DNA from: a bacterium
GTDB taxonomy: Bacteria; Desulfobacterota_D; UBA1144
Assembly (NCBI GenBank): GCA_002708105.2
Contig: PAOQ02000007.1
Span: 5,426-58,748, forward strand
Direction of reading: 5' to 3'
Length of the DNA: 53,323 nt
The position numbers and the translations under genes are program-made. Under the pieces are notes generated by a model that made no database searches, was not told where the DNA came from, and worked only from the letters and a program-made list of their open reading frames with translations. Below are positions 5 to 22,331 of this stretch, piece after piece. Every line of letters begins with the position of its first letter. Within the stretch, counting starts at the first letter, position 1.

Positions 5-87
5 GGGGATATGGCAGAGTGGACAAATGCATCAGACTGTAAATCTGACCGCGCAAGCGTACGGTGGTTCGAATCCATCTATCCCCA
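5..87 (+). tRNA. tRNA-Tyr (GUA)
   Basis: Acceptor GGGGATA/TATCCCC, anticodon loop CTGTAAA in TCAGA/TCTGA stem, long variable arm, T-loop TTCGAAT; CCA not encoded. Confidence 0.95.
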
Positions 88-95
88 GAAAGCAT

Positions 96-169
96 GCGGG
101 AGTAGCTCAGTTGGCTAGAGCATCTGCCTTCCAAGCAGAGGGTCGCGGGTTCGAGTCCCGTTTCCCGCT
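96..169 (+). tRNA. tRNA-Gly (UCC)
   Basis: Acceptor GCGGGAG/TTCCCGC, anticodon loop CTTCCAA in TCTGC/GCAGA stem, T-loop TTCGAGT. Confidence 0.95.
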
Positions 170-173
170 TTTT

Positions 174-245
<72 letters not shown>

Positions 246-300
246 TTCAATTAGTTTAATTAATAGTATGATTTTATATTGAAACTAGAGGAAGTAAGTT

Positions 301-462
301 ATGGGCGATAACATAGTAGTAGTAGCGCTTGAATGCACAGGATGTAATGGTAAAAATAGGTACCATATTAGAAAAAATAAAAAGGTTCAGCGCGACAAAT
401 TAGAGATTAAAAAATATTGTAAATTATGCAATAAACATTTAATTCATAAAGAGACTAAATAG
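301..462 (+). CDS. rpmG: 50S ribosomal protein L33 (Zn-binding CxxC..CxxC form), 53 aa; not in ORF track
   Basis: Hand translation MGDNIVVVALECTGCNGKNRYHIRKNKKVQRDKLEIKKYCKLCNKHLIHKETK; GAGG SD upstream; usual position before tRNA-Trp. Confidence 0.93.
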   Translation: MGDNIVVVALECTGCNGKNRYHIRKNKKVQRDKLEIKKYCKLCNKHLIHKETK

Positions 463-533
463 GGGTGTAGCTCAGCTGGTAGAGCGACGGTCTCCAAAAC
501 CGTAGGTCGGGAGTTCGAGACTCTCCACCCCTG
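461..533 (+). tRNA. tRNA-Trp (CCA)
   Basis: Acceptor AGGGGTG/CACCCCT, anticodon loop CTCCAAA in ACGGT/ACCGT stem, T-loop TTCGAGA. Confidence 0.95.
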
Positions 534-4581: not shown

Positions 4582-5526
4582 TTGTCTAGTCTTCCAAAGA
4601 TTTCAGTCATAGGAGCTGGAAATGTAGGTTCCTCTGCAGCATATAGAGCTTTAGAGCTTAATCTTTCTGATGTTGTCTTGCTGGATATAGTAGATGGTTT
4701 ACCTCAAGGTAAAGCTTTAGATATGACTCAAATGTTATCTGTGACTGGATCATCTTCAAGGATCTTTGGAACCACAGATTATTCAGATACAAAAGATTCA
4801 GATATTGTAATAATTACTTCTGGACTTGCAAGAAAGCCTGGGATGAGTCGTGATGATTTAATTAATACTAATACTAAAATTATCAAAGAAGTTACGCAAA
4901 AAGTAGTAGAAAATTCTCCAAATTCAATAATTATAGTTGTTACAAATCCATTAGATGCCATGACCTATGTTTCATACAAAGTTAGTGGGTTTCCGAAAGA
5001 GAGAATAATTGGAATGGCAGGGGTTTTAGATGCTTCAAGATTTAAAGCTTTTTTATCATTAGAACTTAATGTTGCTGTTTCAAAAATTGACACATTAGTT
5101 TTGGGTGGCCACGGAGATGATATGGTACCTCTAAAAAACTATACATCCATTTCGGGGGTTCCAATCAACCAACTAATAGAAGAATCTAAATTAGAAGATA
5201 TTATACAAAGAACCAGAGATGGTGGTGCTGAAATTGTTAAGCTACTTAAAACAGGCAGTGCCTTTTATGCTCCTGGAGTTTCAGCAATTGAAATGGCTGA
5301 ATCAATTTTAAAAAATCAGAATAAGATCCTACCTTGTTGCACTTATGCTCAAGGTGAATATGGAATAGAAGACCAATTTTTAGGACTTCCTGTTATACTA
5401 TCTTCAGGAGGGGTTAAAGAGATTATAGAGATAGATTTAACAACTCAAGAAAAGCAAGAATTAGTAGTTTCTGCTTCTCATGTTAAGGAACTCTGTAACT
5501 TTATTGATGAGTCTGGCCTAATTTAG
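4582..5526 (+). CDS. mdh: Malate dehydrogenase (LDH-like type), TTG start
   Basis: GAGNVG, RKPGMSRDDL, VTNPLD, GGHGD, GSAFYAP. Confidence 0.95.
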   Translation: MSSLPKISVIGAGNVGSSAAYRALELNLSDVVLLDIVDGLPQGKALDMTQMLSVTGSSSRIFGTTDYSDTKDSDIVIITSGLARKPGMSRDDLINTNTKIIKEVTQKVVENSPNSIIIVVTNPLDAMTYVSYKVSGFPKERIIGMAGVLDASRFKAFLSLELNVAVSKIDTLVLGGHGDDMVPLKNYTSISGVPINQLIEESKLEDIIQRTRDGGAEIVKLLKTGSAFYAPGVSAIEMAESILKNQNKILPCCTYAQGEYGIEDQFLGLPVILSSGGVKEIIEIDLTTQEKQELVVSASHVKELCNFIDESGLI

Positions 5527-14589: not shown

Positions 14590-15659
14590 TGGCTAGTAAA
14601 GATTTTTATTCAACATTAGGCGTTTCAAAAAATTCTTCTGACGAGGAAATTAAGAAGTCATATAAAAAACTAGCATTTAAATATCATCCCGATAGAAATA
14701 AGGGTGATAAAAAATCTGAGGAAAAATTTAAAGAAATAAACGAAGCTTATCAAATATTAGGTGATCCAGAGAAAAGATCTCAATATGACGCATATGGATC
14801 ATCTGCTTTTGAAGGTGGTGGGCCGGGAGGCTTTCCAGGAGGAGGTTTTCCAGGTGGTGGTTTTGCTGGTGGCGGAATAAATATAGAAGATCTCATGGAT
14901 GAGTTTTTAGGTGGTGGCAGAGGACGAAGCAGAAGATCATCTAGGGAAAGAAATCAAAGTCCTCGAGGAAGAGATTTAAAATATGATTTAAATCTAGAGT
15001 TTGATCAAGCTGTTAAAGGTACAAAAATGAATGTCCAGGTTAGAAGGGCAAAAAGTTACAAATCTTGTAATGCTTGTGGTGGATCAGGGCAAGTAAATTA
15101 TTCTCAAGGATTTTTTTCCGTTAGTAGAGGTTGTGATTCATGTGGAGGTATTGGAGCTTTTCCTGAAGATACTGAGCATAAGTCAGTTGAAGTTAAAATT
15201 CCACCCGGTGTAGACAATGGTACACAATTAAGGATAAGGAACGAAGGTGATGTAGGATTAAACTCTGGGCCAAATGGCGACTTGTATATTAATATATCAG
15301 TCAAAGACCATCCCCTGTTTGAAAGAGAAGGTCACAACTTAGTTTGTGAAGTACCAATAAGTGTGCCAAATGCTGTGATTGGTGGAAAAATTGATATACC
15401 AACATTAGACGGTAAATCAGAATTAAAAATTCCGGCTGGAATTCAGCCCGGACAAATCATGAGGCTTAAAGGTAAGGGGATCAAGGATTTACATTCAACA
15501 GATATAGGTGATTTGTATGTAAAATTAAATATTATTATTCCTAAAAGAACTAATGCAAAACAGAAAAAGTTAATGGAAGACTTCCAAAAGGAAATTGATA
15601 AAGATGCATCTAATCCATTCTCAGACTACTTAAACACTATTAAAGATTTTTTTAGTTAA
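14589..15659 (+). CDS. dnaJ: Chaperone DnaJ with half-size Zn finger
   Basis: J-domain HPD, G/F-rich region, only two CxxCxGxG repeats, C-terminal substrate domain. Confidence 0.93.
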   Translation: MASKDFYSTLGVSKNSSDEEIKKSYKKLAFKYHPDRNKGDKKSEEKFKEINEAYQILGDPEKRSQYDAYGSSAFEGGGPGGFPGGGFPGGGFAGGGINIEDLMDEFLGGGRGRSRRSSRERNQSPRGRDLKYDLNLEFDQAVKGTKMNVQVRRAKSYKSCNACGGSGQVNYSQGFFSVSRGCDSCGGIGAFPEDTEHKSVEVKIPPGVDNGTQLRIRNEGDVGLNSGPNGDLYINISVKDHPLFEREGHNLVCEVPISVPNAVIGGKIDIPTLDGKSELKIPAGIQPGQIMRLKGKGIKDLHSTDIGDLYVKLNIIIPKRTNAKQKKLMEDFQKEIDKDASNPFSDYLNTIKDFFS

Positions 15660-15930
15660 CTCCACCAGCAATAGCAGGAATTATAGATACTGTATCGTTC
15701 TCACTAATCTCAGAATCAGGGCCTTTTAGGAATCTAATATCTTCCTCGTTTATATAAATATTAATAAACTTCCTGATTTCTCCATTTTCGTCACATAGTC
15801 TGTCTTTTATTCCAGGGAACTCAGATTCAAGGTCTGCGATCATCTGAGTAACAGAGCTTGATTGCAAAGAAACCTCATCTTTTTCATTGGTAAGTCTTCT
15901 AAGAGGGGTTGGTATTTTTACTATAGCCAT
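15652..15930 (-). CDS. MoaD/ThiS/CysO-family ubiquitin-like sulfur carrier with GG-VN C-terminus
   Basis: VKIPTPLR, FINIYINEEDIRF, IIPAIAGG followed by VN; GGAG SD; 9 nt after the thrC-like gene. Confidence 0.92.
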   Translation of the reverse strand: MAIVKIPTPLRRLTNEKDEVSLQSSSVTQMIADLESEFPGIKDRLCDENGEIRKFINIYINEEDIRFLKGPDSEISENDTVSIIPAIAGGVN

Positions 15931-15939
15931 TAAATTCTC

Positions 15940-17175
15940 CTAACCAAAGATTTTATTAAAATCTTCTATCCTTGGTTCTATTATATATGGTTTTGTTATA
16001 TTATTCACTAACGGATCCTGGGTTTTTAAACCATTACCTGTTATTACTAATACAAGAGATTCATTTCTTGGTAACTTCCCAGATTCAATCATTTTCTTCG
16101 CACAAGCAAGGGTTACACCACCTGCAGTTTCAGTAAAAATACCTTCAGTTTCTGCTAATAGCTTCATTGCATCAACAATCTCAGGATCTGATACATCCTC
16201 TGAATAAGAGTTGATTGAATTTAATAAATTAATTGCATTAATACCATCTGCTGGATTACCTATTGCAAGTGACTTTGCAATCGTTTTTGGTTTTACTGGC
16301 TTAAAGACAGGCCATTTATTTTTAACTGCGGTTGAGATTGGAGAGCAGCCTGTGGCCTGAGCTCCAAATATTTTTGTATCATTTGGCTCTATAAATCCTA
16401 AGTCTTCAAACTCTTTTATAGATTTGTATATTTTAGTCAGCAATGATCCACTTGCCATGCAAACCACGATATTCTTTGGTGCTTTCCAGCCTAGTTGTTC
16501 AATTATTTCGTACCCAACCGTTTTTGAACCTTCTGCATAATATGTTCTCAGGTTAATATTCACGAAGCCCCAATTTTTTGAACCTAAAACTTCGGTGCAC
16601 AATCTGTTTACATCATCATATGCTCCATTTATAGCTATAACTTCTGATCCATATACTGAAGTTCCTATAACTTTTGATTCCTCTAAATCTGAAGGTATAA
16701 ATATAAAACTTTTTAGATTAGCTCTGGTTGCATTTGCAGCGACTGAATTAGCAAGGTTCCCAGTAGAAGCACATCCTACTGTGTCATAACCAAGCTCCTT
16801 AGCTTTAGAAAGGGCAACAGATACAACTCTGTCTTTAAATGACAGGGTTGGGAAAGAAACGCCATCATTTTTTATGTATAATTCATCAACGCCTAATTTT
16901 TTACCAAGATTTTCTGCTTTTATAAGTGGAGTAAAACCAGAGTTTAATCCTACAGTTGGTGCAGAATCTAATGGTAATAGTTCTCTGTATCTCCAAAGAT
17001 TTTTATCTCTTTTAAGTATTTTTTCAATTGTAAGATCCTTCTTTATTTTTTTATAGTCATAATTGACCTCTAATGGCCCAAAGCAGAATTCACAAACATA
17101 ATTTGCTTTTTTTTCATATTCTTTACCACAATTTTTGTCGGCACAACGAAGGTTTACCACACATGAGTTAGACAT
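15940..17175 (-). CDS. Threonine-synthase-like PLP enzyme (possibly O-phosphohomoserine sulfhydrylase)
   Basis: N-terminal Cys motifs, PTLSFKDR PLP lysine, CASTGNLA, ITGNGLK; specificity inferred from context only. Confidence 0.85.
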   Translation of the reverse strand: MSNSCVVNLRCADKNCGKEYEKKANYVCEFCFGPLEVNYDYKKIKKDLTIEKILKRDKNLWRYRELLPLDSAPTVGLNSGFTPLIKAENLGKKLGVDELYIKNDGVSFPTLSFKDRVVSVALSKAKELGYDTVGCASTGNLANSVAANATRANLKSFIFIPSDLEESKVIGTSVYGSEVIAINGAYDDVNRLCTEVLGSKNWGFVNINLRTYYAEGSKTVGYEIIEQLGWKAPKNIVVCMASGSLLTKIYKSIKEFEDLGFIEPNDTKIFGAQATGCSPISTAVKNKWPVFKPVKPKTIAKSLAIGNPADGINAINLLNSINSYSEDVSDPEIVDAMKLLAETEGIFTETAGGVTLACAKKMIESGKLPRNESLVLVITGNGLKTQDPLVNNITKPYIIEPRIEDFNKIFG

Positions 17176-17237
17176 AAAAAACTCCTAAAATTTAAATGTA
17201 ACTCAAGAGGAAAGACATATAGGCAAGAATGTCCTTT

Positions 17238-17289
17238 CTCTGTTTAGCAGTTATTTTATGTCGCTGCAATTAGAGTTAAATGACGACAT
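17238..17289 (-). ncRNA. SAM-II/SAM-V-clan riboswitch aptamer (H-type pseudoknot)
   Basis: Minus strand reads AUGUCGU-CAUUUAA-CUCU-AA-UUGCA-GCGACAU-AAAAUAAC-UGC-U-AA-AC-AGAG. P1 AUGUCGU/GCGACAU; UUU triplex loop; UUGCA/UGC(U)AA and CUCU/AGAG pseudoknot helices, as in metX SAM-II and metY SAM-V RNAs. Confidence 0.8.
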
Positions 17290-17294
17290 TAATA

Positions 17295-17323
17295 ATTATA
17301 GTATTAATTTATAAAAAAAACAA
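17295..17323 (-). promoter_or_regulatory. Putative sigma70 promoter of the riboswitch/thrC-like transcript
   Basis: Minus strand TTGTTT-17 nt-TATAAT ends about 5 nt before the aptamer 5' end. Confidence 0.5.
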
Positions 17324-17357
17324 TAAAGTCTAATTATTAAAGAGGTATACTAAAAAA

Positions 17358-18164
17358 ATGTATGAAAGTATAATTGACGACAATTTTATAATTTACAGAT
17401 TTTTGGTTAAGAATAGCGATAGAAACGTTAATTATCTTATAGCATGTAAGAAAACACTTAATTGCGTCATTATCGATCCACTAGACAAGGATGGAATTGA
17501 AGAAATAATAAATAATAATTCTCTTAATCCAATCTATGTTTTTAATACTCATGCACATCCTGATCACATAAAAGAAAATAGCTTTTTTCTAAATAAATAT
17601 AATTGTAAATTGCTAGCGCACATTGATTGTAAAAACTTGTTTGAATTTGAATTTCAGAATGTCTTTGAAAATGATGTAATCAAACTCGGTGATTTGAACC
17701 TTAAAGTTTTGCATACTCCAGGACATTGTCATGAACACATATCTCTCATATTAGGAGAATACTTTTTATGTGGTGATTTAATTTTTAATCTTGGTGTAGG
17801 AAATGTAAAATTTCGGGGAGATGTTTCTATGTTGTTTAGAACTATAACCCATAAGGTAAAAAATCTTCCAGATGATTTAAAGCTATTACCAGGTCACGAT
17901 TACCTTGCGAATAACATTAACTTTTTACAATCAATTTATTCTGATTCAGAAGTTATTGACGATGAATTGTCTGATTTGTTAAATCAATTCAGTTCGGAGA
18001 AGCTAAGCCCAATTTTTGATTTAAAATTTGAGAAAAAATATAATCCATTTTTAAGAATAGATGAGTTTACCTTTTTAGATTTTTTAGATAAAAAAGATTT
18101 ATTTAAGAATGAGAATATTGAATTTAGATTTAGATTATTGAGGCAACTAAGAGATGAGCACTAA
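17358..18164 (+). CDS. Metallo-beta-lactamase-fold hydrolase, glyoxalase II (GloB)-like
   Basis: THAHPDH, HTPGH, GD..F, PGHDY, NPF. Confidence 0.85.
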
Positions 18165-21100
18165 ATTAACTAAAACTAAAGTCTTTTCATATTTAGATGA
18201 GTTATCGTCAGAAAGAATAGTCTATATGGACGGTGCAATGGGAACAATGATACAAAAGTATCGTTTTGAAGAGAGTGACTATAGAGGATTAAAGTTTCAA
18301 AATCATAAAATAGATTTAAAGGGAAACAACGATATTTTAAATATAACAAATATGGAAGCCATAAAAGATATCCATAAGCAGTACATCTTGTCGGGTTCTG
18401 ATATTATTGAAACTAATACATTTAATGGTACTTCGATAGCACAGTATGATTACAATTTAGAAAATTATGCTGCAGATATTAATATATTTGGAGTAAGAGC
18501 TGTTAAAGAAGCTATTGCTGAAACTTCGGACATGGTGAATGGAAGAAAGATTTTAATTGCTGGTGCATTAGGCCCAACTAATAGAACTGCATCAATTTCT
18601 CCAGATGTTGAAGATCCCAGCGCAAGAAATGTTTCTTTTGATGAACTCTCAGAAGCTTATTATAATCAAGCTAAAACTCTATACGAGTCTGGCGTTGATA
18701 TTCTATTGCCTGAGACTACTTTTGATACTTTAAATTTAAAGGCAGCTATATTTGGGATTCGCCAATTGTTTAATGAGGTATCTATTGAGCTACCTCTCTT
18801 TTTATCTGTAACTTTTTCTGATAAATCTGGAAGGACACTTTCTGGTCAAACTATAGAGGCATTTTGGGAGTCTATTAGACATTCTAATCCCTACGCAGTA
18901 GGTATGAATTGTGGCCTTGGAGCCGCTTCTCTTTATGACTACATGAAGACTCTCTCTAATGTTGCTGATTCGAAAATTTTTTGTTATCCAAATGCCGGCT
19001 TACCAAATCCCTTATCTGAAACCGGATATGATGAGACTCCTGATATGACGGCAAAAGATCTTGAATTATTTGCAAAAGAGAGCCTTGTTAATTTTGTAGG
19101 TGGATGCTGTGGTACCACCCCTGATCATATACAAGCAATAGTACAAAAATTAAGTGAATATAAGGGGAGAGCTAATTCTACAAGAGATAGTTTTTCAACG
19201 TATAGCGGTTTAGAACTATTAAAAAAAGATGATATTAATAATTTTCTATTGGTTGGCGAAAGAAGTAATGTGACAGGATCACCTAAGTTTTCAAGGCTTA
19301 TAAAAGATGGAGATTTTGAAGGTGCATTAGAAATAGCTAAGCAACAAGTTGAGAACGGTGCGCATATTATAGATATTAATTTCGATGAAGGATTAATAGA
19401 CAGTGAGGCATGCATGATAAAATTTTTAAATCTTGTTGCCTCTGAGCCTGATATATCAAGAGTTCCAATAATGATTGATAGCTCTAAATGGTCTGTTATT
19501 GAAGAAGGTTTAAAATGTATTCAAGGTAGAGGAATAGTAAATTCTATAAGTTTAAAAGAAGGGGAGGAAGAATTTCTTAAACAAGCAGAAAAGATATTGG
19601 AATATGGTGCCTCTGTTGTGGTAATGGCTTTTGATGAATCTGGACAAGCAACAGAGACTGATCATAAAGTTGCTATATCTAAAAGAGCTTATAATATTCT
19701 GGTTAACAAAGTTGGATTTTCTCCCGAAGATATAATTTTTGATTCCAATATTTTAACGATTGGAACAGGAATAGATGAACATAAAAATTACGCTGTTAAT
19801 TTCTTAGATGCGATACCTCTAATAAAAAAAGAATGTCCTGGATCCTTAACAAGTGGAGGTTTAAGTAATCTTTCTTTTGCTTTTAGAGGAAATAATAAAG
19901 TAAGAGAGGCTATGCATTCTGTGTTTTTATTTCATGCAATTAACAAAGGTTTAGATATGGCAATTGTGAACGCTGGAATGTTGGAGGTTTATGAGGAGAT
20001 TGATAAAGATTTGTTACATATTATTGAGAACGTAATCTTTAATAAATCAGATGATTCAACTGAAGTTTTGATTAATTATGCAAGCAAGCTTACTTCAAAT
20101 CAATCTAGCCAGGAAAAAGAAGAAGAATGGATGAGTTTTGATTTAGAGAAAAGAATCGCACACCAAGTAATAAAAGGTTTAACGTCAAATATTGAAAATG
20201 ACGTTGAGGAAGCTAGATTAAAATATACTTCCCCTCTAGAAGTAATAGAGGGCCCATTAATGGATGGAATGAAAATTGTAGGAACTCTATTTGGCGAAGG
20301 AAAAATGTTTTTGCCTCAAGTAGTTAAAAGCGCTAGATCTATGAAAAAAGCAGTTAATTATTTAGAGCCATTTATGGAAAAGGATAAAAATAATGTTTCT
20401 GGAATTGGAAAAATTCTAATAGCCACTGTTAAAGGCGATGTTCATGATATTGGTAAAAATATAGTTTCTGTTGTTGCAAGATGTAATGGATATCAAGTAG
20501 AGGATATGGGAGTAATGATCTCATGCGCAGATATTATTGATAGAGCTAAGGATTTAAAGCCAGACATAATTGGACTAAGCGGACTTATTACACCGTCATT
20601 AGATGAAATGATTACAAATGTTTCAGAGTTTGAAAAAAATGGGATTAACATCCCGGTTCTAATTGGTGGAGCAACTACAAGTAAAGCTCATACAGCATTA
20701 AAAATTGCACCAAAGTATCCTAATGAAGTAGTTGTCCATGTTCCAGATGCTTCATTAGTTGTAGGAGTTTGCAAAGATTTGTTAAGTCCAAAAAATAATA
20801 CTGAATTTAAAGATAATATAAAGAAAAGCCAGGTTGAGTTTGCTTCAAACTATAACAAAAATAAAAAAATAAAATTTCTATCTCTAGATGAGGCAAGAAA
20901 CAATAAGCTAAAAATAAATTTTAAGAAAATAAATAATAAAATTAATGATTATTCAGAAAAAAAATGGGAGTTTGATATTAATGAGATTATTCAATATATT
21001 GATTGGTCACCTTTTTTCTGGACATGGGAGCTTAAAGGTGTTTATCCTAATATCTTCCGTAATAAAAAATATGGCACCCAGGCTAAAGAATTATTTATAG

Positions 21101-21828
21101 ATGCAGAAAAAATTTTAAAAAGAATGATTTCCGAAAAAGTTTTGTCATTAAAGGGTTTGTCAAAAATATGGAATGCATACTCCATTGATGAGGACATTGT
21201 TTTAATTGATAAGAATGGAATAGAAATTGAAACATTAAATTTTCTTAGACAGCAGGCTGATAAAAGTACAAAAAATTCTAAATACTATTGTCTCTCAGAT
21301 TTTGTATCAGATAAGAAATCTGATGATGATATATTGGGAGCCTTTGCTGTTACTGCAGGGAAAGAAGTTGAAGAATATGCCTCTAGTTTTGAGTTAAAGG
21401 GGGATGATTACTCATCTATAATGATTAAAGCTATAGGAGATAGATTGGCTGAAGCATGTTCAGAGTTTCTACATTATAAAATTCGGATCTTAAATGGTGA
21501 AAACGAAGATTTTAATCTTAAATCCTTAATAAAAGAGGAGTATTCTGGAATAAGGCCTGCGCATGGGTATCCATCCATTCCTGATCACTCTGAAAAAAGT
21601 AAAATATGGTCATTGCTAGAAGTAGAGAAAAATATTGGTGCCTCGTTAACAGAAAATTTTGCTTTAAATCCTCCTTCCTCAATTTGCGGTCTTTATTTCT
21701 TTAACCCAGAAGCTAGATACTTTAATCTAGGAAAAATTAATAATTCGCAATTTGAGATATATGCAAACAAAAAAGGTTATAATATTGAAAGGATGAGAAG
21801 TTTGCTTCAAAATAATTTAATAGATTAA
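18154..21828 (+). CDS. metH: Cobalamin-dependent methionine synthase
   Basis: 1224 aa; [15 protein letters not shown], pterin domain, B12 motif [10 protein letters not shown]-terminal activation domain. Confidence 0.97.
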
Positions 21829-22331
21829 TGACTATAGATGATTTATTAAAATTAAAGAATGATACTTCAAGTTTAACAGATGAATGGGTTGATTCTGCAA
21901 ATAACGCTTTAGAAGTTTTAAATGATGCTAAGCTAAATGATGATGATTTAAAGAATATCTTTCAATCATCTTCATCTCCAAAGGTTTTTAAAAACTTTGT
22001 CAGATTATTATACTCAGAATCAAAAAAGCCAAATATACCAGTAAAATCATTCGATAAAATAAAGCAATATTCAAAAGGCTTATCATATGATGGTAGGGCG
22101 AAAAATTATACAATTAAAGAATATTCAATTTCATCTTGGCTCGATTCAATTGATGCTGTATCTGATTGGTTGGACGAGAATGAATTGGAAGCAGATCTCT
22201 CATCTATTGTTGACTATATCGCTTGCTCAACAGAAACAGTTAATCTTGCATCAGATAATCTAGAACTTGTGGAGATTGTATCTGATTTCTTAAAAGATTT
22301 TGGTTTTGAAAGATCTTTGAAAATAAAATAG
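21828..22331 (+). CDS. Hypothetical acidic, helical protein coupled to metH (TAATG overlap)
   Basis: 167 aa ORF; no family recognised. Confidence 0.75.
   Translation: MTIDDLLKLKNDTSSLTDEWVDSANNALEVLNDAKLNDDDLKNIFQSSSSPKVFKNFVRLLYSESKKPNIPVKSFDKIKQYSKGLSYDGRAKNYTIKEYSISSWLDSIDAVSDWLDENELEADLSSIVDYIACSTETVNLASDNLELVEIVSDFLKDFGFERSLKIK

Follow-up and report, generated by a model that had tools for sequence, protein, structure and literature searches.

A probable MetM/MetO-type homocysteine-forming pair and its candidate SAM-II-like leader in a streamlined marine bacterium

Why should a gene that reads as a threonine synthase be paired with a ubiquitin-like sulphur carrier, be headed by a leader resembling an S-adenosylmethionine (SAM) riboswitch and stand divergent from the methionine synthase gene metH? 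The arrangement is found in a stretch of 53,323 nucleotides (positions 5,426 to 58,748 of contig PAOQ02000007.1, assembly GCA_002708105.2; the window). Our answer is that the two genes probably constitute a MetM/MetO-type system that makes homocysteine, a reading to which gene content, phylogeny, genomic context and regulation all contribute and whose chemistry would follow, by analogy, that of MetM/MetO and CysM/CysO. The pair comprises:

15940-17175, minus strand: MetM-type homocysteine synthase candidate, a ThrC-fold pyridoxal phosphate enzyme of 411 amino acids [open reading frame (ORF) list, Pfam, NCBIfam]
15652-15930, minus strand: CysO/MetO-type ubiquitin-like sulphur carrier, 92 amino acids (ThiS family, 57 bits)

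The window lies on contig C10 of its genome (G000; 908,595 bases in 24 contigs, rated 88% complete). The closest public loci are 90-92% identical and come from marine metagenome-assembled genomes labelled 'Deltaproteobacteria bacterium TMED58', 'Thermodesulfobacteriota bacterium' or 'bacterium'; one homologue is labelled Candidatus Dadabacteria, and this single label is the whole basis for our calling the lineage Dadabacteria-like. The ~1 Mb genomes of the clade number seven (the window's own and six relatives), and a seventh relative, G006, has 3 Mb. We compared 80 related loci for the query enzyme and 80 actinobacterial loci found from an actinobacterial representative.

The ThrC-fold enzyme and the housekeeping threonine synthase

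The enzyme matches PALP in Pfam (224 bits) and TIGR00260 thrC in NCBIfam (280.3 bits, cut-off 167.1), and its N-terminus carries a Cys-x4-Cys ... Cys-x2-Cys pattern, i.e. a Cys4 zinc-ribbon-like motif. The carrier gene lies downstream across a gap of 9 nucleotides (15931-15939); ORFs and family matches are as the initial annotation described them. The simplest explanation would be an ordinary threonine synthase, as annotated, beside an unrelated carrier. The TIGR00260 score is well over the cut-off, the best sequence matches in the PDB are without exception canonical threonine synthases (192.7 bits at most), and the named homologues in public sources are all called 'threonine synthase'. We nevertheless consider this explanation very improbable. 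A canonical ThrC is encoded elsewhere in the genome, on contig C4 (442 amino acids, 216 bits on the thrC model, beside aroE-like and thiE-like ORFs), and in BLASTP the query is only 25% identical to it. The search for a second thrC suggested by the initial annotation thus ends with the enzyme not being the sole ThrC of its genome, and the thrC model likewise gives at least two matches over its cut-off in 12 of 12 other genomes that have a query homologue.

The query is 48-91% identical to 12 MetM-like proteins and 25-33% identical to 15 canonical ThrCs. In a maximum-likelihood tree [IQ-TREE, LG+C20+F+G4, 38 rows, 426 columns, rooted on three other PALP enzymes] it falls inside a MetM-like clade of 20 rows (support 100/100, stem 1.05), together with sequences from TMED58, Scalindua, Zetaproteobacteria, Verrucomicrobiae, Nitrospira, Chloroflexi, Synechococcus/Cyanobium, Acidobacteriota, Anaeromyxobacteraceae and five rows of Actinomycetota. 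Fourteen canonical ThrCs, the C4 gene included, make up a separate clade (97/96). A Dactylosporangium row (L202) is long and stands alone in the tree, and drew a long-branch warning from the tree tool. Despite passing the TIGR00260 cut-off, the query is therefore not an orthologue of the housekeeping ThrC clade, and the phylogeny proposed by the initial annotation sets it apart. No solved structure appears to exist for the MetM-like clade. Two further features speak against a threonine synthase, both described below: the carrier is kept in nearly all related loci, and orthologues of the enzyme stand under SAM riboswitches.

Streptomyces, from which MetM is known, was absent from the actinobacterial loci found (Micromonosporaceae, Frankia and Blastococcus were present). 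A degenerate GC-rich pattern for the CASTGNLAN motif matched at least 120 stretches, with no Streptomyces among the 80 loci listed. A tblastn search of a plasmid collection gave one MetM-like match, in a Nonomuraea record, among the 30 rows listed, and none of those rows came from the 6 Streptomyces records of the collection. The Nonomuraea record (NZ_LT559118.1, 11.85 Mb) is filed among plasmids but by its size looks like a chromosome; its MetM-like gene has no annotated feature, and the encoded protein is 57% identical to the Micromonosporaceae representative.

Routes to homocysteine and the carrier machinery

The MetB/MetY-type family Cys_Met_Meta_PP was found in none of the seven ~1 Mb genomes at E <= 1e-10 (in the window's genome nothing rose above noise, best 33.6 bits), MetX in none of the seven, and MetA was not found in the window's genome; within these scopes the absence of metA, metX, metB and metY anticipated by the initial annotation is borne out. 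The 3 Mb relative G006 has a Cys_Met_Meta_PP gene (metY, 445.7 bits) adjoining a MetX-like gene. In the ~1 Mb genomes the carrier route is the only apparent route to homocysteine.

The logical substrate is O-phosphohomoserine. Searches of the genome for the homoserine kinases ThrB and ThrB_alt (TIGR00191, TIGR00938) found neither and gave one weak GHMP-kinase match only. The HomK model TIGR02535 matches a protein of contig C14 (C14:21713-22903) with 461 bits (cut-off 446), and matches in 8 of 8 genomes, over the cut-off in seven. Proteins of the BT2402 type within TIGR02535 are described in PMC13759103 as rescuing an Escherichia coli thrB mutant. The C14 protein also passes the phosphoglycerate mutase (apgM) model NF003242 (482 bits, cut-off 426), and a weaker paralogue of the HomK/cofactor-independent phosphoglycerate mutase kind lies at C13:12661-13806 (161.5 bits on the HomK model); for these two reasons the C14 protein is a probable rather than a sure HomK-type source of O-phosphohomoserine.

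The expected consumer of homocysteine is encoded divergently from the pair, in a unit of two genes:

17358-18164, plus strand: gloB-like metallo-beta-lactamase-fold hydrolase, 268 amino acids, first gene of the metH unit (Lactamase_B and HAGH_C)
18154-21828, plus strand: cobalamin-dependent methionine synthase MetH, 1224 amino acids (NF007024)

MetH is the consumer of homocysteine; it scores 1714.2 bits on NF007024 (cut-off 1497), and Pfam matches all five MetH domains. The proposed pathway would run as follows. The HomK-type enzyme would make O-phosphohomoserine, and the ThrC-fold enzyme would take this compound and, instead of water, use sulphur from the C-terminal thiocarboxylate of the carrier. 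The carrier would be adenylated and sulphurated by a MoeZ-type E1-rhodanese (contig C23); a JAMM/Mec-type protease, whose gene we find in the relatives, would trim the two residues that follow Gly-Gly and release the product, and the homocysteine would be turned into methionine by MetH.

The carrier has the features that such a scheme demands. Queried by tblastn with the window's carrier, 78 of the related 80 loci show a carrier-like ORF, and in the other two (L024, L033) the contig ends directly after the enzyme gene. The C-terminus runs on for two residues past a conserved PAIAGG, and all 25 aligned carriers share the GG. Of 69 distinct carriers, 15 end at the GG, 14 have one residue after it, 8 have two, 28 have three and 4 have four, from which it follows that carrier processing must be common. 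Its nearest matches among solved chains are 4n6e_B ('ThiS/MoaD family protein', E 5e-19) and 3dwg_C (E 3e-18), which we take to be the CysO chain of the Mycobacterium tuberculosis CysM-CysO complex. ThiS-family genes number two per ~1 Mb genome of the clade, this carrier and one of ~70 amino acids; the second of these, in the window's genome, is a genuine ThiS (TIGR01683) encoded next to ThiO. In the actinobacterial loci a carrier lies within 3 kb in only 1 of 80, so there it must be encoded elsewhere. A GNAT-domain ORF follows the MetM-like gene in Micromonospora and Dactylosporangium.

Some loci bring further parts of the machinery together. At the Nitrospirales locus L039 the gene order is ThiS, PALP (309 amino acids), ThiF, MetM-like, ThiS, NIL, ThiF and Prok-JAB, the Nitrospira locus L092 is similar, and the zetaproteobacterial locus L025 has a PALP enzyme and a ThiF gene downstream of the MetM-like gene with the carrier in between. 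The NIL-domain protein between carrier and ThiF (79-94 amino acids; L039:5438-5719 and L092:5493-5729, both plus strand) has no counterpart at the window's locus. The MoeB/MoeZ search called for by the initial annotation found exactly one ThiF-family gene in the window's genome, on contig C23. Its product has 372 amino acids and a C-terminal rhodanese domain, and is most like the MoeB/MoeZ models NF005646 (552 bits) and NF005902 (491 bits), under the equivalog cut-off in both cases.

The JAMM/Mec protease sought along with the E1 did not turn up: Prok-JAB and JAB models match no gene in the window's genome, itself 88% complete, and one gene in each of the seven relatives. In G007 and G013 this gene lies behind a CysM-like one (TIGR01138, 346 bits, which is below the cut-off). 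The ORFs of the relatives' cysM-JAMM region have no tblastn match in the window's contigs except to a generic SDR, and the region probably lies in the unassembled 12% of the genome. The cysKM model similarly finds no CysK or CysM in this 88% complete genome and two genes in each of the seven relatives; the missing cysteine synthase and JAMM protease are both probably an assembly gap. CysE is present in all eight genomes examined. Since classical cysteine synthesis exists in the lineage, the carrier route is not the sole entry of sulphur into amino acids.

Might the pair then make a different sulphur amino acid or thio-metabolite, such as cysteine from O-phosphoserine, or cysteate? The carrier is closest to CysO chains, the enzyme weakly matches the model for cysteate synthase (57 bits against a cut-off of 324.9), and the JAMM gene of the relatives lies beside a CysM-like gene and not beside the pair. 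The relatives, however, are already equipped for cysteine with CysE, CysK and a CysM-like enzyme, SAM regulation and the neighbouring metH point to methionine, and without this enzyme the seven ~1 Mb genomes would have no homocysteine route. We regard a product other than homocysteine as improbable. That the pair makes homocysteine for MetH, as the initial annotation proposed, is favoured by the clade in which the enzyme falls, the second ThrC, the MoeZ-type E1, the lack of MetX and Cys_Met_Meta_PP and the SAM-I riboswitches of orthologues.

Several observations weigh against homocysteine formation by this pair. The enzyme passes the NCBIfam thrC equivalog cut-off, and its predicted orthology to the characterized Streptomyces albulus MetM is indirect, the tree holding no Streptomyces row; it leans on the 51.6% identity of that MetM to a cyanobacterial homologue (PMC12172450) and on the Synechococcus, Cyanobium and five Actinomycetota rows in the clade of the query. 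The assembly provides neither the JAMM protease nor a cysteine synthase, and the HomK candidate doubles as an apgM match. A cyanobacterial case also gives pause. MetM homologues occur in cyanobacteria, and the ThrC of Microcystis is 51.6% identical to S. albulus MetM and is encoded beside a MetO-like gene (PMC12172450); in that paper the Microcystis homologue behaved mainly as a threonine deaminase, its incubation with O-phosphohomoserine and Na2S gave an unidentified peak only, and it did not raise methionine.

SAM riboswitches and the SAM-II-like leader

Orthologues of the enzyme in other lineages are preceded by SAM riboswitches. Rfam scanning at gathering thresholds, leaving out the numerous Nitrospira loci that have the gene inside an operon, found SAM-I (RF00162, 75-86 bits) directly upstream in 5 of 16 loci (one from Verrucomicrobiae, two from Scalindua, one from Planctomycetota and one from Zetaproteobacteria). 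The remaining 11 comprise seven loci of the window's clade, which have a SAM-II-like leader, and four Thermodesulfobacteriota loci with no riboswitch at these thresholds. Among actinobacteria, SAM-I precedes the gene in every one of the 20 loci scanned (Micromonospora, Actinoplanes, Frankia, Glycomyces, Blastococcus and others; 56-93 bits). The leader of the window's pair contains the following elements:

17223-17297, minus strand: SAM-II-like H-type pseudoknot, candidate aptamer (RF00521, 30.8 bits, E 2.4e-5)
17287-17283 with 17264-17260, minus strand: P1 of the pseudoknot; the partners of P2 and P2a extend to 17238
17295-17300, minus strand: -10-like TATAAT hexamer, 7 nucleotides upstream of P1 (read from the sequence)
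17206-17241, minus strand: expression-platform hairpin (covariation, RNAalifold)
17199-17204, minus strand: conserved GAGUUA, candidate anti-aptamer pairing with UAACUC of the third-strand loop (RNAalifold)
17182-17186, minus strand: Shine-Dalgarno sequence AGGAG, 6 nucleotides before the ATG (17175-17173)

At gathering thresholds Rfam reports no riboswitch in the window, and four tRNAs only. At E-value thresholds the leader matches RF00521 (SAM_alpha) with 30.8 bits, below the gathering score of 36, and RF01726 (SAM-II long-loop) with 23.3 bits; no SAM-V match is listed up to E = 10. Of the 'SAM-II/V-shaped' leader of the initial annotation, the SAM-II half thus survives as a sub-threshold match with a compatible pseudoknot, and the SAM-V half finds no match. 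The genome has four copies of the leader with a near-identical core (35.6, 30.8, 29.0 and 25.3 bits; E 8e-7 to 5e-4). A further 20 copies occur in six of the seven relatives (22.9-35.8 bits), three or four in each of five of them and one match in G015; the 3 Mb genome G006 has none. In 14 control genomes there is no leader match at E <= 0.01, and at E <= 1 weak matches appear in eight control genomes.

Twenty-two of the 24 leaders were aligned, leaving out L356 (N-containing) and L358 (a near-duplicate). The aptamer part hardly varies between them. For the proposed P1, P2 (which has one bulged U) and P2a, pairing holds in 97.4% of cells, as against 29-52% when the partners are slid, and the conserved AUUU, UUGCA and UGC-U-AAA correspond to features of SAM-V/SAM-II, namely the third strand, the helix P2, its bulged U and three adenines. 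In SAM-V, as described in PMC6061858, a U-rich third strand and a U-U-G-C strand of P2 are present, the bulged U pairs with the adenine of SAM, and adenines flank the sulphonium and bind the amino-acid end; SAM-II is said there to be virtually identical in these features. Two points count against SAM sensing: all 24 copies score below the Rfam gathering score (best 35.8 bits), and P1, P2 and P2a lack covariation, no pair changing on both sides in the 22 leaders. Because no pair covaries, the aptamer fold is compatible with the alignment and not proven by it; because the copies are also sub-threshold, binding of SAM is predicted only and unproven. The last P2 pair had looked like a covarying one in the first leaders (G-C, A-U, G-U) and was dropped, the 22 leaders giving G-U in 8, G-C in 7, A-U in 4 and A-C in 3, roughly what chance would give.

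The region behind the aptamer differs from it in its signal. The hairpin at 17206-17241 covaries: both sides change in 6 of its 13 pairs, pairing is kept in 87.6% of cells, and none of 500 shuffles reaches the observed values; RNAalifold predicts it too. The 5' base of the hairpin shares the AGAG that is able to form P2a, and its 3' strand contains a CCUCUU run of anti-Shine-Dalgarno type. A long-range helix between UAACUC and GAGUUA (RNAalifold columns 14-19 with 94-100) is kept in 22 of 22 leaders, with G-U pairs in 3-4 and no covariation, and pairing of the Shine-Dalgarno sequence with CUCUU of the hairpin is possible in 90% of cells, again with no covariation. No terminator-like site was found in the leader. 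The TATAAT-like hexamer is at the same place in paralogous leaders; a consensus promoter scan does not list it because no -35 element fits. A single-sequence fold, in which the L3/P2 3' strand pairs with the region from the Shine-Dalgarno sequence to the ATG, was set aside, as RNAalifold on the 22 leaders does not keep this pairing.

From these predicted pairings we infer an ON/OFF model of the leader. When SAM binds, the AGAG segment would be held by the P2/P2a triplex; with AGAG held, the base of the downstream hairpin would open and the CCUCUU run would be freed to mask the Shine-Dalgarno sequence (OFF). With no SAM, the hairpin would form together with the UAACUC:GAGUUA pairing and would leave the ribosome site free (ON).

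The four leader targets recur across genomes. One copy directly heads metM-metO. The second target is a CysI-type sulphite reductase gene (677.8 bits) followed by cysD, cysN, a permease gene and a cysH-like gene (leader at C22:18401-18475, minus strand), the third a rhodanese gene with a SufU-like gene (C12:11848-11922, plus strand) and the fourth a methanethiol-oxidase-like gene, a weak match (69 bits) cut at a contig end (C5:1136-1214, minus strand). In the three targets other than metM a mini-ORF rich in cysteine codons lies between leader and gene; it has 28-33 codons in the window's genome, ending in runs of cysteine codons, and 21-33 codons across the copies printed.

This choice of targets, which are not the classical met genes, is one ground for supposing that the enzyme is MetM-like but its leader something other than a SAM sensor, either read by a protein or responsive to another ligand (S-adenosylhomocysteine or a sulphur metabolite), its likeness to SAM-II being due to remote descent or to chance. 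The low scores of all copies and the invariant pairs of P1, P2 and P2a agree with that supposition. We think it rather unlikely: E-values fall to 8e-7 per genome with nothing in the controls at the stricter threshold, every nucleotide that contacts SAM in SAM-V/SAM-II is there and does not vary, and orthologous genes in other phyla use SAM-I.

The observations on carrier and leader can be joined into a wider picture, which we put forward tentatively, as possible and somewhat short of an even chance. The MetM-like and the CysM-like enzyme may both be served by a single CysO-type carrier with a single MoeZ and a single JAMM protease, the carrier route being the sole one to homocysteine. A lineage-specific SAM-II variant may head a sulphur regulon of four operons. 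In three leaders the aptamer may gate the cysteine-rich mini-ORF, and the leader may thereby read the supply of cysteinyl-tRNA as well as SAM.

Relation to characterized systems and neighbouring features

Protein thiocarboxylates supply sulphur to amino acids in other bacteria. In the cysteine pathway of M. tuberculosis (CysM, CysO, Mec+ and MoeZ), CysM uses thiocarboxylate chemistry and a JAMM protease serves for release. The window's carrier belongs to the same subfamily as CysO, and both the chemistry and the release are proposed to be alike. Unlike CysM, which carries out a beta-replacement on O-phosphoserine, the enzyme here has a ThrC fold and would carry out a gamma-replacement on a homoserine ester; a separate CysM-like gene stands beside the JAMM gene in relatives. 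In Wolinella succinogenes (HcyS, HcyD and HcyF) a protein thiocarboxylate gives the sulphur of homocysteine, and the enzyme is of MetY type and acts on O-acetylhomoserine. Residues after the GG of the carrier, removed by a JAMM protease, are common to HcyS and, as proposed, to the carrier here; unlike in Wolinella, neither a MetY-type (Cys_Met_Meta_PP) enzyme nor MetX was found in the window's genome.

The closest system is that of Streptomyces, and the MetM/MetO precedent that the initial annotation named is real: in Table 2 of PMC13759103 the Streptomyces proteins MetO, Mec, MoeZ and MetM appear as experimentally supported, with Hasebe et al. 2024 (Appl Environ Microbiol 90:e0124724) as the source, a study also cited in PMC12172450. 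PMC13759103 gives the S. albulus proteins as UniProt A0A059WBP2 (MetM) and A0A059W7F4 (MetO). According to PMC12172450, metM of S. albulus has an upstream SAM riboswitch, and PMC13759103 gives Mec as predicted in the nitrospirote Dissulfurispira. Shared with S. albulus MetM/MetO/MoeZ/Mec are a ThrC-like enzyme distinct from the housekeeping ThrC, a GG-tailed carrier, a MoeZ-type E1, a SAM riboswitch upstream (here a candidate) and O-phosphohomoserine as the logical substrate. The present system differs in that its leader is SAM-II-like, whereas the actinobacterial relatives scanned all have SAM-I; in that the carrier gene is adjacent, which is rare in actinobacterial loci; in that O-phosphohomoserine would come from a HomK-type enzyme rather than from ThrB; and in that it is apparently the sole homocysteine route, with the Mec protease not in this assembly.

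The leader resembles SAM-II (RF00521, RF01726) and SAM-V in its H-type pseudoknot, U-rich third strand, UUGC and GC-U-AA strands of P2, bulged U, three adenines and 3' P2a, and, like the translational members of these classes, it has no terminator-like site. It departs from them in its sub-gathering scores (23-36 bits), in its occurrence in a Dadabacteria-like lineage and not in Alphaproteobacteria or Bacteroidetes, in the covarying hairpin and GAGUUA box that follow the aptamer, and in the cysteine-rich mini-ORF that follows three of the four copies.

The pair is a further member of a published pathway, one that is already built into GapMind 2026. What is particular here is the sub-threshold SAM-II-like leader, an apparently sole route to homocysteine in a genome of ~1 Mb, a substrate likely supplied by HomK and the four-operon regulon with its cysteine-rich mini-ORFs; the single CysO-type carrier may serve the CysM-like enzyme too. 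The assignment would correct the annotation of homologues now named 'threonine synthase' and fill what looks like a gap in methionine synthesis in a marine lineage that is abundant, uncultured and genome-streamlined and would otherwise count as auxotrophic for methionine, a point that matters for models of cross-feeding in the surface ocean. The pathway described in Streptomyces in 2024 can, on this reading, be the sole route to homocysteine, paired with HomK as an alternative to homoserine kinase. A sub-threshold SAM-II-like element in four copies per ~1 Mb genome suggests in addition that the Rfam SAM-II model misses a marine lineage.

The divergent gloB-like/metH unit is as the initial annotation had it, in ORFs, Pfam and NCBIfam alike. 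The two ORFs overlap by 11 nucleotides, and the gloB-like ORF scores 138.4 bits on the GloB model TIGR03413, under the cut-off of 200.8. A gloB-like gene has the equivalent divergent position at loci L015 and L020. It is a long shot that this thioesterase-fold protein helps to release homocysteine from the carrier. An ORF of 167 amino acids (21828-22331, plus strand), which matches nothing in Pfam or NCBIfam, shares one base with the stop codon of metH, and the overlap suggests translational coupling of the two. At the start of the window four tRNA genes are clustered (5-533, plus strand; Rfam).

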